A stretch of DNA of 24,000 nt from Azospirillum ramasamyi. GTDB taxonomy: Bacteria; Pseudomonadota; Alphaproteobacteria; Azospirillales; Azospirillaceae. Of this stretch, positions 16,371 through 23,439 are shown in pieces. Numbering within the stretch: position 1 is the stretch's first letter; every line of letters begins with the position of its first letter. The position numbers were made by a program, and so were the translations under genes. The stretch spans positions 544,978 to 568,977 of the forward strand of contig NZ_CP029829.1 of NCBI RefSeq assembly GCF_003233655.1, written 5' to 3'. A model generated the notes under the pieces. That model saw only the letters and a program-made list of their open reading frames with translations. It had not been told where the DNA came from and did not search any database.

Positions 16371-17642
16371 TCAGAGCGGGGTGCCGGTCAGCACGCCGTC
16401 CTTGATGCCGGTGACGGCGGCGGGCACCAGCGAGCCGGGCGGAAAGGGCCGGCCCAGGCGGATCGCGGCGAAATGCTCGGTGCGGCCCAGGTCGTCCTTT
16501 TCCACCAGCACGGTGACGGTGCGGCCGACGAGTCCCGCCAGGGTGCGGGCTTCCGCCGCCTCGCCGACGGCGCGCAGGCGGGCGGCGCGCTCCTTGCGGA
16601 CGGCGCCGTCGACCTGCGGCATGCGGGCGGCCGGCGTGCCGGGACGCGGGCTGTAGGGGAAGACATGCAGCCAGGTCAGGCCGCATTCCTCCACCAGCCG
16701 CATGGTGTTCTGGAACATCTCCTCGGTCTCCGTCGGGAAACCGGCGATGAAATCGGCGCCGAACACCACGTCGGGCCGGATCGAGCGCACCCGCTCGCAG
16801 AAGGCGATGGAATCGGCGCGGCCATGGCGGCGCTTCATCCGCTTCAGCACCATGTCGTCGCCGGCCTGCAGGGACAGGTGCAGGTGCGGCATCAGGCGCG
16901 GCTCGTTTTCGAGCAGGCGCCAGAGGTCGTCGTCCATCTCGATGCAGTCGATGGAGGACAGGCGCAGCCGCGGCAGTTCCGGCACCAGTGCCAGCAGCCG
17001 GCGCACCATCTGCCCCAGCGACGGCGAGCCCGGCAGGTCGGGGCCGTAGCTGGTGATGTCGACGCCGGACAGCACCACCTCGTTGTAGCCGGCCTTCACC
17101 AGCGCCTGGACCTGCTCGACGATGCCGCCGATGGGGACGGAGCGCGACGGCCCGCGGCCATAGGGGATGATGCAGAAGGTGCAGCGGTGGTCGCAGCCCT
17201 GCTGGACCTGGACGAAGGCGCGGGCACGGTCTTCGAACCCGCCGATCAGATGACCGGCGGTCTCCTTCACCGACATGATGTCGTTGACCAGCACCTTCTC
17301 GGCCGGCGGCAGGCCCCAGCTTTCCGGCTGCAGCTTTTCCTGGTTGCCCAGAACCTGATCGACCTCCGGCATCGCGGCGAAGCGCTGCGGGTCGATCTGG
17401 GCGGCGCAGCCGGTGACGACGATGCGGGCGTCCGGCCTCTCGCGCCGCAGCTTGCGGATGGTCTGCCGCGCCTGCCGCTCGGCTTCCGACGTCACGGCGC
17501 AGGTGTTGACGATCACCACGTCGTCCAGCCCGGCGCTGCGCACATGGTTGCGCATCACCTCGGACTCGTAGGTGTTCAGGCGGCAGCCGAAGGTGACGAT
17601 CTCGGGGCCGGTCTGCGTCGTGCTGTCGGTCGTATCGCTCAT
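16371..17642 (-). CDS. mtaB: MiaB-family radical SAM methylthiotransferase (MtaB-like)
   Basis: Start at ATG 17642 (MSDTTDSTTQTGPEIVTFGCRLN). Contains the radical SAM motif CDHRCTFCIIP and the N-terminal Cys triad contexts FGCRLN, NTCAVT and TGCAAQ. The 718-aa track ORF is this gene plus an out-of-frame read through dapF. Confidence 0.88.
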   Translation of the reverse strand: MSDTTDSTTQTGPEIVTFGCRLNTYESEVMRNHVRSAGLDDVVIVNTCAVTSEAERQARQTIRKLRRERPDARIVVTGCAAQIDPQRFAAMPEVDQVLGNQEKLQPESWGLPPAEKVLVNDIMSVKETAGHLIGGFEDRARAFVQVQQGCDHRCTFCIIPYGRGPSRSVPIGGIVEQVQALVKAGYNEVVLSGVDITSYGPDLPGSPSLGQMVRRLLALVPELPRLRLSSIDCIEMDDDLWRLLENEPRLMPHLHLSLQAGDDMVLKRMKRRHGRADSIAFCERVRSIRPDVVFGADFIAGFPTETEEMFQNTMRLVEECGLTWLHVFPYSPRPGTPAARMPQVDGAVRKERAARLRAVGEAAEARTLAGLVGRTVTVLVEKDDLGRTEHFAAIRLGRPFPPGSLVPAAVTGIKDGVLTGTPL

Positions 17643-18475
17643 ACCGAAACCAGTTCGGCCGTCAGCCGGCCGCTGAAGGCGACCGCCACCGGGCCGGTCA
17701 TCAGAACGCGGTCGTCCCCGGTCCATTCGATGGTCAGGGTGCCGCCGTCCAGCAGGATGTCGGCCTTGCGCCCGGTCAGGCCGCGGCGGGCCGCCGCCAC
17801 CAGCGTGGCGCAGGCGCCGGTGCCGCAGGCCTGGGTGATGCCGGCGCCGCGTTCCCACACCCGCATGCGGATGGCGGTGGGCGACAGGACCTGCGCGAAC
17901 TCGATGTTGGAGCGCTCGGGAAAGCTCGGGTGGTTCTCGAACACCGGACCGACCTCGGCCAGCGGCACCGCTTCGGCATCGTCGACGAAGAAGACGGCGT
18001 GCGGGTTGCCCATGTTGACCGCGACCGGTCCCGCGAAGCCGCCATGCTCCACCGATTCGACCCGCAGCGTGTCGGTGGGGGCGGCCAGCGGAATGGCGCT
18101 CCAGTCCAGCCGGGGCGGACCCATGTCCACGGTGATGCGGCCGTTGTCGGCGCGGGAGGCGTGCAGCAGCCCGGCGGCGGTCTGGAAGCTGGCGCGGTCG
18201 CGCCCGCTCTCCTCCATCAGCAGCCAGCCGACGCAGCGCGATGCATTGCCGCAGGCCGCGGCCTCGCTGCCGTCGGCGTTGTGGATCCGCATGAAGGCGT
18301 CGGCCCCCGGCGCCTCGGTCCGCTCCAGGATGATGAACTGGTCGCAGCCCACGCCGGTCTTGCGGTCGGCGATGGCGCGCACCTCCGCGCCCGAGGGGCG
18401 GTAGGGTTCGGAACGGGCGTCGATCACGACGAAGTCGTTGCCGAGGCCGTGCATCTTCAGGAATTCGCGGGTCAT
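17639..18475 (-). CDS. dapF: Diaminopimelate epimerase
   Basis: MHGLGNDFVVID, with catalytic Cys contexts AAACGNASRC and TQACGTGACA. The stop TGA overlaps the mtaB ATG (ATGA). Confidence 0.93.
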   Translation of the reverse strand: MTREFLKMHGLGNDFVVIDARSEPYRPSGAEVRAIADRKTGVGCDQFIILERTEAPGADAFMRIHNADGSEAAACGNASRCVGWLLMEESGRDRASFQTAAGLLHASRADNGRITVDMGPPRLDWSAIPLAAPTDTLRVESVEHGGFAGPVAVNMGNPHAVFFVDDAEAVPLAEVGPVFENHPSFPERSNIEFAQVLSPTAIRMRVWERGAGITQACGTGACATLVAAARRGLTGRKADILLDGGTLTIEWTGDDRVLMTGPVAVAFSGRLTAELVSV

Positions 18476-18566: not shown

Positions 18567-18998
18567 TCACGCCCCCTTGAACACCAGATGCTTCGACGCC
18601 GCGAAGTTGAAGAACATGCCGGCGATGGAACCGGCGGCCACCGCCAGGAACGGAAGCTCGGCGACCGTCTGCACGCCCGATTCCAGCCCGACCGACATGG
18701 CGTAATTCACCACGCCGCCGAAGGCGTTGGCGGCGATGAACTTGGCCCATTGGCGATGCAGCGGCTCGTCCGCCGCGCCGCGGAAGGTGAAGGCGCGGTT
18801 GAGCGCCCAGGTCGCCGTCGCCGCGGCGAAGAAGGACGGAATGCGGGCGGCGAAGAACTCCAGCCCCAGCGCCAGCCCGCCATAGAGCACGGCGGTGTCC
18901 ACCAGCAGGCCGATGACGCCGACCGCGCCGAACTTGGCGAACTGCACCCCCAGCCGTCCCAGCCGGTTGTCCAGCAGAGTGGCGACCGGCCCGCTCAC
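18567..18998 (-). CDS. GtrA-family small membrane protein (polyprenyl-phosphate-sugar flippase-like)
   Basis: About 143 aa from GTG 18998, which overlaps the upstream stop as GTGA. It has four hydrophobic segments. FAKFGAVGVIGLLVDTAVLY and FFNFAASKHLVF fit the GtrA-like pattern. The remainder of the 362-aa track ORF is the glycosyltransferase gene read out of frame. Confidence 0.72.
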   Translation of the reverse strand: MSGPVATLLDNRLGRLGVQFAKFGAVGVIGLLVDTAVLYGGLALGLEFFAARIPSFFAAATATWALNRAFTFRGAADEPLHRQWAKFIAANAFGGVVNYAMSVGLESGVQTVAELPFLAVAAGSIAGMFFNFAASKHLVFKGA

Positions 18999-20050
18999 CG
19001 GCGGCTTTCCGCCCGGTCGACGGCCAGCGGCGGGTGGTTGCCCGGCGCGCGCAGAGACAGGTAATGCATGCGCTTGGCCTCGCGGCGGCCATGGGTGACG
19101 GTGTCCAGGATCAGCCCGCAGGCCAGGCTGAGGAAGGCCATCAGCATCAGCCCGGTCGCCAGCACCGCGGTGGGGACGCGCGGAACCAGTCCGGTCGCGA
19201 AATAGGTCATGATCACCGGTACGCCGAGGATCACCGACAGCAGGGCCAGCAAGCCGAACAGCCCGGAGAAGAAGGGCAGCGGCCGCTCCTCCTTCACCAG
19301 CATGATGATGGCGCGCAGGATGCGGATGCCGTCGCGGATGGTGTTCAGCTTGCTGTGCGACCCGGGCGGCCGGTCCTTGTAGGGGGTCTTCACCTCGGCG
19401 ATCGGCATGCGCAGCTCCAGCGCATGGACGGTCAGCTCCGTTTCGGTCTCGAAACCGCTGGCCAGCGCCGGGAAGGACTTCACGAAGCGGCGGGAGAACA
19501 CCCGGTAGCCCGACAGCATGTCGCCGATGCGGCTGCCGAAGATCTTGGCGACCATGCCGGTCAGCACGAGGTTGCCGAATCGGTGGCCGGGGCGGTAGGC
19601 GGCGACGATGTCGGTCACCCGCGCGCCGTTGACCATGTCCAGCTGGTCGTCCCACAGTCGCTTGACCAGCTGCGGCGCGCTGGCGGCGTGATAGGTGTCG
19701 TCGCCGTCGACCAGCACATACACGTCCGCTTCGATGTCGGCGAACATGCGGCGCATGACGTTGCCCTTGCCCTGCAGCGGCTCGTGCCGGACCACCGCCC
19801 CCGCCGCACGCGCGACCTCGACCGTCCGGTCCTGGGAGTTGTTGTCGTAGACATAGACCGTCGCCTCCGGCAAGGCGGCGCGGAAATCCTGCACCACCTT
19901 GCCGATCGCCGCCTCTTCGTTATAGCAGGGGATCAGCACCGCGATGGTCGGAGCCGGAGCGGCGTCCGTGTCGGCCCGCGCCGTTCCCAAAGGGGCGGTG
20001 CCGGCGGTGCCGGCGGTGGAAGCGGCGCGGTCGATGGTTGATACGGTCAT
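18995..20050 (-). CDS. Family 2 glycosyltransferase with C-terminal membrane anchor (GtrB/ArnC/Dpm1-like polyprenyl-phosphate glycosyltransferase)
   Basis: IAVLIPCYNEEAAIGKVV, YVYDNNSQDRT and YVLVDGDDTY (DxD) form a GT-A domain. It is followed by two hydrophobic helices, PFFSGLFGLLALLSVILGVPVIM and VLATGLMLMAFLSLACGLIL. Start set at ATG 20050; the SD is weak. Confidence 0.85.
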   Translation of the reverse strand: MTVSTIDRAASTAGTAGTAPLGTARADTDAAPAPTIAVLIPCYNEEAAIGKVVQDFRAALPEATVYVYDNNSQDRTVEVARAAGAVVRHEPLQGKGNVMRRMFADIEADVYVLVDGDDTYHAASAPQLVKRLWDDQLDMVNGARVTDIVAAYRPGHRFGNLVLTGMVAKIFGSRIGDMLSGYRVFSRRFVKSFPALASGFETETELTVHALELRMPIAEVKTPYKDRPPGSHSKLNTIRDGIRILRAIIMLVKEERPLPFFSGLFGLLALLSVILGVPVIMTYFATGLVPRVPTAVLATGLMLMAFLSLACGLILDTVTHGRREAKRMHYLSLRAPGNHPPLAVDRAESRR

Positions 20051-20140
20051 GGCGCTGGCTTTATGGCTCGAAAAGGGCGGATGGGCGGTTACTGGCGATA
20101 AACAGCACAAACCCGCCGATTATTCCACTATCTCCCGAAT

Positions 20141-21748
20141 TCAGGGCGTCCTGTCCACTGCGCAGAGGTTCAGGGTCTCGCCGAGATTGTTGGGAACCGT
20201 CCGGCAGCGCTGCGGGTCCAGCCGCAGGCCGAGCAGCGCTGCGGCCTTCGCCGCGCCGGGCGTGTCGGGGATCGTGCTCAGCATCAGGAAGGGGCCGCGG
20301 TGGGACGCCACCTTGTCCTTCAGGATGGCGAGATGGCCGTTGCCGACCGAATCCGGCTGCAGGAAGTTGGACTGGATGCGCACGAAGGTGAGGCGGGGCG
20401 GGAAGGACGGAATGACGTGCGAGATGGCCCAATACCCCGCCATCAGCACCATGGTGCCGTCGGGATCCTCGATGGGCGGCACTTCCGCCGTCACCCACTT
20501 GTCGGCCCAGGCGACGCGCCCCCAGTCGGCCGGCTGCACCGTCAGCTGCACCAGCGCCAGCAGGGCCGCGGCCAGCCCGATGCGCAGGCGGCGGGACAGC
20601 GGCAGCAGGCCGACCGCCATCACCAGCCCCAGCGGGGCCAGCATCTCCAGCGGCACCAGATAGCGGTAGATGCAGAACATCACCACCCACAGAACATAGG
20701 TGACGCTCAACGCGGTCAGCAGGAAGAGCGTCACCGGCCGCTCGGTCAGCCACTCGTTGCGCCGGTGCAACGACCATCCGATCAGCGCGCCGACGGCTCC
20801 CGCCGGCACCAGAACGAACAGCGCCAGAACCCGCATGTCGAAGAAGGGAACTTCGCCCACCGTCAGGGGGGAGAAGGTGAAGACGAAGGGGAAGAACAGC
20901 CGCTGCCACGGTTCTGGCGGGAAGAAGCTGACATTGACGTAGTCGGATATCGCGGCGAAGGGCGATTTGAAGATGTGGTTCATGTGCGGGAAGACCGGGT
21001 TCCCGTAATCGTGCCACAGATGGGCCATCCACACGCCGCCGCCCAGGACCAATCCCACAAGCACCCCGATGCCGAAGAAGAAGGCAAGCCACAGGCGCCG
21101 CCACGGCCGGGCGGGCAGGGCGAGGAAAGCCAGGCACAGCCCGACCGCATAGATCACCGTCGGGTTCTTCAGCCCCATCGCCACCCCGGCCAGCAGGCCG
21201 GCCGCCGCCACCCGTGCGAAGCTCGGCAGCGGCCGTCCGTCCAGGATGCCGGGCAGGCCGCCGGCGATGACGGCGAGCGCACCCAGCACGCCCAGGCTGA
21301 GCACATTGTCCTGGAAGGTGGTGCCGATCAGCCCCAGCGCCCCGCCGCCCAGCCCCCCCATCACCGCAAGCGCCATGGCGATCAGGCTTCGTTGCAGTGC
21401 CGGACCGTTCCGGAAGCAGGACGATGCCACCAGATACAGCAGAGACAGGTTGAGCCCCTGCAGCGTTCCCCACAGGAATCCCGCCGCCCGCGCCGGCAGA
21501 TGGGTCGCCAGCCAATAGAAGGGCACGTCCAGGAAGGGGCTGTAGAAGGTCGGCATCTGCGCCGGCAGCAGGTCGCGTCCGATCCGCCCGTTCAGCAGCG
21601 CATAGGCGTTGTACCAATGGTAGTTCCGCAGATCCCAGTTTGCGTCCATGCCGAAGGCCAGCGTCAGCAGCCCGTAGGCGACCGGAGCCAGCAGCAGGAA
21701 GGCACGGCCGGTCAGGCGGGCACGGCGGTCGTCGTCAATGGTCGGCAT
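20141..21748 (-). CDS. Polytopic membrane protein, probable GT-C-fold glycosyltransferase; subfamily not assignable by eye
   Basis: 535 aa with roughly a dozen hydrophobic segments. Acidic and aromatic residues lie in the first extracytoplasmic loop ([22 protein letters not shown]), as in GT-C enzymes. There is a C-terminal soluble domain of about 110 aa with two Cys. The gene lies directly upstream of the GT2 and GtrA genes. Confidence 0.7.
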
Positions 21749-21817: not shown

Positions 21818-21859
21818 TCAAACGATTTGGGCCAAACGATTTGGGCCAAACGATTTGGT
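21818..21859. repeat. Three tandem 14-bp units, each containing the palindrome CCAAA-CGA-TTTGG
   Basis: TCAAACGATTTGGG, CCAAACGATTTGGG and CCAAACGATTTGGT, read directly. The array lies 70-110 bp upstream of the GT-C gene start. Confidence 0.9.
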
Positions 21860-21896: not shown

Positions 21897-22100
21897 TCAG
21901 CCTGCCAAGTTCGAGGAGTCCTGCGAGGGTGCCTGCGCCGGGAATTCCAGCCGCCGCAGCCGGTCGGCCAGCTGACGTTCGGCCAGTTGCCGTTCGATGA
22001 ACAGCAGCGGCACCAGGGCTATTCCCAGCCCGTCCTCCGCCGCCTGGATGGCGACAGAGGTGTGATCGACGTTCAGCGCGGTTGCGCAGCCGTTGACTTT
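21897..22100 (-). pseudogene. C-terminal remnant of a LysR-type transcriptional regulator
   Basis: [41 protein letters not shown] resembles the C-terminal effector-domain segment of LysR/GcvA-type regulators. No helix-turn-helix or the other roughly 230 aa are present. Upstream codons lose GC3 bias, and an intact gene would overlap the MFS gene. Confidence 0.45.
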
Positions 22101-22191
22101 TCTCACGGGCATCCGTTGACTTGTCTCAACAATCATCGCCGAACAAATCATTTTTCCCGGCGCCGTCCGGCCGCTACCCTGGTACCGGCCG

Positions 22192-23439
22192 ATGTGGGGA
22201 ACGGGGTGGCGGGGCGTGGACGGAAAGAGCGGACCGGCGGTGCCGGCGCGGGTGGTGTGGGCGCTGGGCATGTCGCAGCTGGTCTGCTGGGGTGTGTCCT
22301 ACTACCTCGTCGGCCTGTTCGGAGAGGCCATGGCCGCCGATCTTGGGCAGGGATTGCCGGCGATCTATGGCGGCTTCACCCTGGCGCTGGTGGTGATGGG
22401 GCTGGTGTCCTCCGCCGTCGGCCGCGCCATCGACCGGCGGGGCGGCCGGGTGGTGATGGTCGCCGGCTCCCTCCTGATGGCGGCCGGCTGCGTCGGGCTG
22501 GCGCTGGCGCACGGGCTGGTCGTCTATTACGCCTCCTGGGTGCTGCTCGGCCTCGCCATGCGGATGGCGCTGTACGACGCGGCCTTCGCCGCGCTGGCCC
22601 GCATCGGCGGACGGGCGGCGCGCAGGCCGATCTCGCAGATCACGCTGCTCGGCGGGCTTGCCTCCAGCGTGATGTGGCTGGTCGGGCAGTCCGTGGCGGA
22701 GGGGCTGGGCTGGCGCGGCGCGCTCCTCATCTATGCGCTGCTGGCGCTCGCGACGGTGCCGCTGCATCTGCTGATCCCGTCCGACCGCTTCGTGGAGCCG
22801 GTGCCGGAGCCCGTTCCCGCAGTTCAGGCGTCCGCAGTTCAGGCGTCCGCCGCGCCGGCCGCCCCGCCGCCGTCGGCCCTGGCGGTGGTTCTCTACGCGT
22901 TGATCATTGCGCTGACGGGGATGCTGAACTCCGGCCTTTCGGCCCATATGATCGGCATGCTGGCGGGGCTGGGAATGGCGCCGGCGCTGGCGGTGTGGGT
23001 GTCCACCCTGCGCGGCGTCGGACAGTCGGCGGCGCGGCTGGCGGAGATCCGGTTCGGCAGGCGGCTGTCCGCCTTCGGCCTCGCCATCCTGGCGACCGGG
23101 CTGACCGTGCCCTGTTTCCTGTTCCCGGTGGCCTTCGGCGCGGCCCCCGCCGCCGGCATCGCCTTCGCCCTGCTGTTCGGGGCGGGAAACGGACTGGTCA
23201 CCATCGTGCGCGGCGCCCTGCCGCTGGTCCTGTTCGATCCCGCCCGCTACGGCCAGACCGTCGGGCGCCTGATCACCCCCGGATTCTTCGTCTCGGCCCT
23301 CGCCCCGCTGGTCTACGCGCTGGTGATCGAGCGGTTCGGCGACGCGGCGGCGCTGTGGCTGTCCTTCCTTCTGGCGGCGGGCGCGCTGGTGGCGGCGCTG
23401 GTTCTGGCGCTGCGTTTCGGCACCCGCAACCGGGCCTGA
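22192..23439 (+). CDS. MFS transporter, substrate unknown
   Basis: About 12 hydrophobic segments and an MFS motif-A-like [10 protein letters not shown] after TM2. The start is uncertain (ATG 22192 lacks an SD, and in-frame GTGs lie nearby). Confidence 0.8.
22819..22848. repeat. Perfect 15-bp tandem duplication (GCAGTTCAGGCGTCC x2) inside the MFS gene
   Basis: Read directly. It is in frame and encodes [10 protein letters not shown] in the Pro/Ala-rich central loop. Confidence 0.9.

Follow-up and report, generated by a model that had tools for sequence, protein, structure and literature searches.

What do three co-oriented genes beside dapF on an Azospirillum chromosome make together, and is their arrangement more than chance? 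The genes lie in a stretch of 24,000 nucleotides with ~68% GC (G000:C1:544978-568977; hereafter the window), and they read on the minus strand in the order GT-C, GT2, GtrA. The first encodes a predicted GT-C-fold membrane glycosyltransferase of 535 aa (21748..20141, stop codon at 20143-20141), the second a GT2 protein of 351 aa (20050..18995, ATG at 20050) and the third a GtrA protein of 143 aa (18998..18567). A 90-nt spacer (20140..20051) separates the first two, and the GTG start of gtrA at 18998 overlaps the TGA of the GT2 gene as GTGA. An earlier note on this DNA had described the same layout, gap, overlap and co-orientation included, and all its coordinates are exact. A scan for terminators and promoters found no terminator-like site on the minus strand of the 90-nt spacer and no intrinsic terminator-like site between any of the module genes; the single minus-strand terminator hit falls within the GtrA open reading frame (ORF), and the hit count is not above shuffled expectation. 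The arrangement is more than chance, because it recurs in many distant genomes, and the three genes very probably form a three-component extracytoplasmic (periplasmic) glycosylation system.

A single-sequence search with the 535-aa protein brought up nothing significant in Pfam, NCBIfam or PDB sequences, and a profile of 147 sequences of its family still retrieved no solved relative among PDB sequences, in keeping with the earlier note, which could not place the protein in a named subfamily. Its AlphaFold2 model, computed with 40 homologues in the alignment, has a pLDDT of 91.2 and a pTM of 0.91. When this model was compared with the PDB by Foldseek, the top 24 matches were all GT-C glycosyltransferases, among them ALG9, DPY19, Pmt4, ALG3, ArnT, PglB, PimE, EmbA/B/C, OST STT3, GPI-MT-I and AftB, with a probability of ~1.0 and TM-scores of 0.31 to 0.52 depending on normalisation by query or target length. 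Membrane proteins other than GT-C enzymes stand lower in the list, at TM-scores of ~0.1; the confident fold matches thus comprise GT-C enzymes only and no transporter family. On the evidence of the model the 535-aa protein is a GT-C-fold integral membrane glycosyltransferase with a predicted activity, and the GT-C-like assignment made earlier from the sequence is borne out by the structure search.

The secondary structure of the model has ~11 transmembrane helices, close to the 12 counted previously, and a soluble alpha/beta domain at the C-terminus (~403-535), which had also been foreseen. The N-terminus is basic in sequence and therefore probably cytoplasmic; with the N-terminus inside, loops 33-85 and 249-305 and the C-terminal domain would be periplasmic, so that the topology is probably N-in, C-out. 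The first external loop (33-85) is 53 residues long and carries D35, D39, D59 and D74. Conservation was assessed over 147 diverse representatives sharing 27-46% identity with the window protein. All of them share D147, K194 and P251, and D35, W38, D39, N42, Y43, H44, Y46, D59, Y361, R362, Y363, E368, C515 and C529 are conserved in at least 90%. The acidic residues that had been noticed in the first external loop are therefore not a peculiarity of this one sequence, D35 and D39 being conserved across the alignment within a loop 1 motif D35xxxD39xxxY43-H44. The first juxtamembrane helix (H38-52) opens with D39, which Y43 follows at a distance of four residues, and the protein combines the multi-spanning core and the acidic residue just after the first transmembrane helix that mark the GT-C superfamily. 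In the model, D35, D39, Y43, H44, D59, D147, K194, Y361, R362, Y363 and E368 are located at predicted periplasm-facing ends of loops or helices. The conserved Cys515/Cys529 pair of the C-terminal domain fits a periplasmic disulfide.

The second and third genes encode what appears to be a donor cassette. The GT2 protein matches PF00535 (E 4e-15), has a DGD motif at residues 115-117 and ends in a hydrophobic stretch (257-319) read as two transmembrane helices, which agrees with the DxD motif and the two C-terminal helices described before. Its best full-length NCBIfam match is TIGR04182, AglJ, at 194 bits, under the equivalog cut-off of 325, followed by a haloarchaeal dolichyl-phosphate hexose transferase at 89 bits. 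Among its sequence matches of solved structure, the DPMS of P. furiosus (5mlz) is the sole polyprenyl-phosphate glycosyltransferase; glucosyl-3-phosphoglycerate synthases outscore it slightly, over the N-terminal part only. The ArnC model (PRK10714) is not matched by this GT2, and it is matched by two other GT2 proteins of the same genome. These comparisons suggest a polyprenyl-phosphate hexose synthase closest to the AglJ/DPMS type rather than to ArnC/GtrB. The 143-aa protein, previously called GtrA-like, matches PF04138 (E 1e-20) over model positions 1-117, which is the full model, and is the only GtrA protein in the genome. To our knowledge, the flippase or helper role proposed for the GtrA family as a whole has never been directly demonstrated. 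A literature search for Azospirillum together with GtrA returned no relevant work.

A profile search with the GT-C family against 1.84 billion cluster representatives retrieved 4,540 proteins at E<=1e-3, of which 2,381 reached E<=1e-30, so the family size of about 4,500 counts clusters at 50% identity. The members come from Pseudomonadota, Desulfobacterota and Marinimicrobia, and where they are named in their sources they are nearly always called ‘hypothetical protein’. The comparison with GT families that the earlier note had called for gave no match of the window protein to GT87 (PF09594, DUF2029) at E<=1 and none to GT83/GT39 (PF13231 PMT_2, ArnT/PMT). Weak matches do appear among 83 diverse family members, five to GT87 (best E 5e-7) and five to PMT_2 (best E 7e-5). 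An hhalign comparison of the family with the GT87 proteins of Azospirillum was not significant (probability 0.4%), a negative that is weak because the template alignment is shallow (Neff 2.4). The family falls inside the GT-C superfamily and, by sequence comparison, outside the described families of Pfam, NCBIfam and the PDB. A more ambitious proposal, which we put forward tentatively, is that the 535-aa protein founds a new GT-C family (unassigned in Pfam and NCBIfam, possibly also in CAZy) that, together with an unusually conserved GT2-GtrA pair, decorates a conserved part of the envelope in many Gram-negative bacteria with an unrecognised sugar. The window's own genome holds a single family member. 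Several metagenomic members, P0216 and P0254 among them, are longer: some carry a C-terminal DUF4214 extension, and others reach 610-750 aa with extra sequence that has no assignment.

The linkage of the three genes was examined at 62 GT-C loci outside Azospirillum, counting a GT2 gene when it lay within the flanking 4 kb. A GT2 gene flanks the GT-C gene in 48 of these loci, mostly immediately downstream, and all three genes stand together in 31. The order GT-C, GT2, GtrA was seen in the inspected loci, with one exception (GtrA-GT-C-GT2, at L014 of genome G052), and recurs in Alpha- and Gammaproteobacteria, Desulfobacterota and Marinimicrobia; the three genes stay linked even in distant alphaproteobacteria whose GT-C is only 33-35% identical. 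Named loci come from Skermanella, Niveispirillum, Nitrospirillum, Oleisolibacter, Rhodocista and Micavibrio, and loci from metagenome-assembled genomes (MAGs) are labelled Methylococcaceae, Gammaproteobacteria, Desulfocapsaceae, Desulfobulbaceae, Dissulfuribacterales and Marinimicrobia. Two proteins even join the components in one chain: P0134, which matches PF04138 at residues 16-134 and the GT-C family profile at 155-666, and a second GtrA–GT-C fusion at a Methylococcaceae locus (L130). The triad with the logic of Gtr systems that had been recognised in the window is thereby confirmed as GT2, GtrA and GT-C, linked across phyla and sometimes fused.

Across phyla, the GT2 orthologues are 67-79% identical where the adjacent GT-C proteins are only 38-48% identical. 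Such striking conservation of the GT2 beside a divergent GT-C argues for one common donor. Of 401 alphaproteobacterial genomes sampled, 38 have the GT-C and 76 have the orthologue of the GT2, with 46-87% identity when the window's own genome is set aside. Both are present in 33 of the 38 GT-C-positive genomes; the GT2-GtrA cassette is thus commoner than the GT-C of the module. If the GT2 is present and this GT-C is not, the neighbouring multi-spanning gene is for a GT87 or PMT_2 protein or for a different unclassified membrane protein, and some genomes have two or three paralogous GT-Cs of the family with one GT2-GtrA pair. By analogy with the Gtr and Rgt systems, we read this as one donor cassette that may serve exchangeable, acceptor-specific GT-Cs. 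Two isolated family members were also observed. One is a very divergent second copy (26% identity) without adjacent GT2 or GtrA genes on another replicon of G088 (L042, G088:C2:828700-846300). The other is an orphan on a metagenome contig (L019:1-9572), beside a phosphoribosyltransferase gene and a few kb from hopanoid-type genes (radical SAM with DUF3463, LytB, an MMPL transporter and an epimerase).

The earlier note had suggested accessory status for the module and a comparison among relatives, and this comparison contradicts it. A search of 36 Azospirillum genomes found the GT-C in 32, 67-95% identical across the genus, and the module is kept at one fixed site between a leuD-like gene and dapF-mtaB-ftsY. 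In Azospirillum brasilense Sp7 and Sp245 the orthologues share 72-73% (GT-C) and ~80% (GT2) identity with the window proteins. Of the four genomes with no match, three, G019 among them, are incomplete (59-87%) and one, G013, is 99% complete. Five other Azospirillum species share the order LeuD-like, GT-C, GT2, GtrA, dapF, mtaB, ftsY, and the downstream synteny reaches other Azospirillaceae when dapF- and mtaB-sized ORFs are recognised by size rather than by Pfam. The sole variable part of the locus is upstream and consists of a LysR remnant and a gene for a major facilitator superfamily (MFS) transporter, the latter present in the window genome, its closest relative and G088; in most other Azospirillum the LeuD-like gene lies ~330-380 nt from the GT-C gene and there is no MFS gene.

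If the three proteins act as their families suggest, the GT2, anchored by its two C-terminal helices, would move a hexose from a nucleotide sugar onto undecaprenyl phosphate at the cytoplasmic face, a step inferred from its resemblance to AglJ and DPMS. GtrA may then help to translocate the lipid-linked sugar or hand it over to the periplasmic face, where the 535-aa GT-C would pass the sugar to an acceptor. In this transferase D39, at the tip of the first juxtamembrane helix and backed by D35 and Y43, would serve as catalytic base, and K194 together with R362, Y361 and Y363 would hold the donor phosphate; D39, Y43 and K194 would thus play the parts of D58, Y62 and K195 in PimE. The donor is probably the same hexose wherever the GT2 occurs, and our guess is glucose or mannose. 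Given that the GT-C is conserved in a genus with variable O-antigens and sits among housekeeping genes, the most likely acceptor is an envelope molecule that is itself conserved, and not an O-antigen specific to a serotype. As a guess, we rank the lipid A-core region of lipopolysaccharide first, along with other conserved envelope glycans; a periplasmic glucan, another glycan or a lipoprotein are alternatives.

Several observations weigh against this picture of the module or against its details. The roles given to the GT-C residues are drawn from motif analogy, and neither sugar nor acceptor is readable from the sequence. The genes around module loci across lineages are unrelated housekeeping genes, and the C-terminal domain offers no clue to the acceptor: modelled alone with AlphaFold2 (pLDDT 88), it yields in Foldseek generic Rossmann-like methyltransferases at E>=0.01 and TM-scores below 0.43. 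Two Azospirillum species keep GT2-GtrA at the site without the GT-C. Their loci (L078, G013:C3:1218000-1232000; L079, G019:C27:40000-54000) read LeuD-like, GT2, GtrA, dapF, with no GT-C gene and no remnant of one, and no family member was found elsewhere in either genome. GT2-GtrA also pairs with other GT-C families elsewhere; since it persists without this GT-C and pairs with others, the cassette is not dedicated to this transferase. Conversely, family f131 (G167, G292, G391; the loci of G167 and G391 were inspected) has the GT-C without this GT2. The guess of lipid A as acceptor is further weakened by the description of the lipid A galacturonic acid (GalA) transferase RgtF as a member of the ArnT superfamily (PMC8036547), and by two pairs of ArnC-like GT2 and PMT_2 genes in the genome, which fit that function better.

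One competing explanation is modification of lipid A or core by a system of the Rgt, Arn or Lgm type, in which the GT-C, working on the periplasmic side, would add a sugar such as GalA, mannose or glucose to lipid A or the inner core. It amounts to the preferred explanation with the acceptor specified, and we consider it possible, if rather doubtful. It would sit well with the genus-wide conservation at a fixed chromosomal site and with the combination, in some genomes, of one donor synthase and several paralogous GT-Cs, as in RgtE with RgtA-D; moreover, the lipid A of Azospirillum lipoferum reportedly carries GalA at C-1, according to a work cited in PMC7795004. The 535-aa protein, however, matches neither PMT_2 nor ArnT, its GT2 is AglJ/DPMS-like rather than ArnC-like, and no PAP2 (LpxE/LpxF-like) gene lies near the module or near any other GT-C locus examined. 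The genome holds four PMT_2 proteins, two of which adjoin ArnC-like GT2 genes: an ArnC/PgfS-like GT2 and PMT_2 pair on the minus strand (L043:4166-7125, G000:C1 at ~1.870-1.873 Mb) and an ArnC/PgfS-like GT2 gene on the plus strand followed by a PMT_2 gene (L044:16521-17300, G000:C5 at ~201-203 kb). Both pairs are better candidates than the module for the reported GalA modification. An RgtE/RgtF system for lipid A GalA, considered because of the similar size of the transferases, was accordingly rejected as the leading explanation, RgtF being of the ArnT superfamily and the genome having these separate pairs. Glycosylation of proteins or lipoproteins seems improbable. In this reading the GT-C would modify proteins of the periplasm or the membrane, in the manner of a PMT or of a DPY19-type enzyme, and Pmt4, DPY19 and OST/PglB are indeed among the top fold matches, but matches at TM-scores of 0.4-0.5 do not discriminate between types of acceptor, and no motif that binds an acceptor peptide was identified. 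At 13 of 62 loci the gene next upstream, in the same orientation, is for a conserved lipoprotein, which has a homologue elsewhere in the window's own genome; this linkage is absent in Azospirillum and may be inherited synteny of one clade. The lipoprotein, seen in Micavibrio-like and other alphaproteobacterial MAGs, is ~200-230 aa long, with a signal peptide, a lipobox and no Pfam family (L136:3208-3909, L118:3289-3951, L114:3236-3949 and ten others), and the homologue of 27-34% identity lies elsewhere on the chromosome (L164:6248-6844, plus strand).

Classical serotype-converting glucosylation of O-antigen, as performed by GtrABC of Shigella and Salmonella phages, has the same three-part architecture with a GtrA family member. 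We find it very unlikely here, as the flanking genes examined provide no phage context, the module is a conserved feature of a housekeeping locus throughout the genus, and the GT-C, at 67-95% identity in the genus, is not serotype-specific; in addition, the model of ArnC/GtrB type that other GT2 proteins of the genome match does not recognise this GT2. None of the features of phage-type GtrABC, namely a prophage location, a serotype-specific GtrC and a GT2 of the GtrB/ArnC type, was found, and an O-antigen acceptor is unlikely for the reason that the GT-C is conserved and placed at a housekeeping locus. Hardly any weight falls on the idea that the 535-aa protein is a transporter or structural membrane protein merely lying beside a GT2-GtrA pair. 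It gains something from the lack of a sequence-level match to known glycosyltransferase families, but all confident fold matches are GT-C enzymes, with transporters at TM-scores of ~0.1 and probabilities below 0.15. The clustering of conserved acidic and basic residues on the periplasmic side, the weak GT87 or PMT_2 matches of some family members, and the operon linkage and fusion with GtrA also speak for a glycosyltransferase.

Turning to the surroundings of the module, dapF (18475..17639) follows downstream of gtrA, and beyond it come an MtaB/MiaB-like radical-SAM gene, ftsY and a gene for AMP nucleosidase. On the other side, divergent from the GT-C gene, lie the MFS transporter gene (22192..23439, plus strand) and an aconitase-C/LeuD-like gene (from ~23620). 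A fragment of a LysR substrate domain (21897..22271, minus strand) sits with the MFS gene between the LeuD-like gene and the GT-C gene; the match is weak (E 2.6e-5) and covers profile positions 132-176 only, and the pseudogene scar that the note had placed beside the module is real. Upstream of the GT-C start, at 21818-21859 of the window, there is a tandem array of the palindrome CCAAACGATTTGG. The pattern CCAAANNNTTTGG is absent from 35 other Azospirillum loci covering the region, including that of the closest relative, whose GT-C is 95% identical; the array is strain-specific, which makes a role as conserved operator for the module unlikely.

Clustering of neighbouring genes at 26 and then 62 loci retrieved, besides GT2, GtrA and shadow ORFs, generic ABC ATPases, ClpB in one clade, dapF- and mtaB-sized ORFs in Azospirillaceae (by size only) and the lipoprotein of the 13 loci mentioned above. 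The adjacency to dapF looks like lineage synteny. In a Competibacteraceae MAG, a gene directly upstream of a GT-C-GT2-GtrA operon (L017:6277-7974, plus strand) encodes a 565-aa membrane protein with a weak match to GH17 (beta-1,3-glucanase/NdvC-like), which may point to a link with glucans in this lineage.

The module is real and conserved and very probably a three-component periplasmic glycosylation operon; its mechanism would be of a known kind, whereas the GT-C family is large and undescribed. Although periplasmic glycosylation by three components is already known, every GT-C family newly recognised brings to light another modification of the envelope, as GT136 did, and the present family extends over several phyla and lacks both a profile model and any characterised member. 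The module is among the conserved genes of a genus that promotes plant growth and may represent a new envelope trait of Azospirillum; its product could explain a conserved surface feature with a bearing on root colonisation, sensitivity to phages or antimicrobial peptides, or immune recognition. Through the highly conserved GT2-GtrA pair, which is common to different GT-C families, a single donor might be established for many transferases. The two species that naturally lack the GT-C and retain the cassette (G013 and G019, a natural ‘GT-C minus, donor plus’ state) provide a ready comparison.

How does the module relate to systems already described? Three-component extracytoplasmic glycosylation systems have been defined as a class (PMC11127046), with GtrA/GtrB/GtrC, CsbB/GtcA/YfhO, GacI/GacJ/GacL and PpgS/Rv3632/Rv3779 as examples (PMC11127046, PMC8035078). 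As predicted from sequence and model, the module has a membrane-anchored GT2 with GtrA and a GT-C fold alongside, and like the class it unites a GT2 lipid-phosphate sugar synthase, GtrA and a GT-C in one putative operon, with a conserved donor cassette and variable GT-C partners. It differs from GtrABC in being neither phage-borne nor serotype-specific, in its AglJ/DPMS-like rather than GtrB/ArnC-like GT2, and in a GT-C from no described family.

GT136 (ORF12 of Citrobacter youngae), a family founded recently and belonging to a three-component system, is comparable as a GT-C without sequence similarity to existing families that was recognised by its fold and operon context. It is set apart by description, its donor being a pentofuranose delivered by a phosphoribosyltransferase pathway and its acceptor O-antigen, whereas the donor enzyme of the module is a GT2 synthase of the hexose type. 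A 1011-aa protein encoded elsewhere in the window's genome (L048:3073-6108, minus strand; G000:C8, ~234-237 kb), and found in several Azospirillum genomes, fuses an N-terminal GT87 GT-C to a C-terminal UbiA/decaprenyl-phosphate phosphoribosyltransferase-like domain (PRK08238, 629 bits). By its sequence this fusion resembles a fused periplasmic glycosylation system of the pentofuranose type.

With ArnT and RgtF (GT83, PMT_2), which act on lipid A and core, the module GT-C would share a periplasmic site of action, a C-terminal soluble domain and a lipid-phosphate sugar supplied by a GT2; ArnT is among its fold matches, and RgtF (Mlr0011, 549 aa) is of similar size. The pairs of ArnT and RgtF with ArnC and RgtE differ in that the module GT-C has no PMT_2 match and its partner GT2 is not ArnC-like, and the window genome has separate ArnC-like and PMT_2 pairs. 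Compared with PimE and GT87 (DUF2029), mannosyltransferases that depend on polyprenyl-phosphate-mannose, the module GT-C has an extra C-terminal periplasmic domain of ~130 aa, comes from Gram-negative lineages, is linked to GtrA and, for the window protein, matches GT87 at no E<=1. The GT-C fold is common to both, and PimE (9dm5) is one of the fold matches. In PimE, the catalytic base D58 is located at the tip of the first juxtamembrane helix, Y62 hydrogen-bonds D58, and K195 binds the donor phosphate (PMC12041525). The module protein likewise has an Asp opening this helix with a Tyr four residues on (D39/Y43 against D58/Y62 in PimE) and an invariant Lys near position 194/195.

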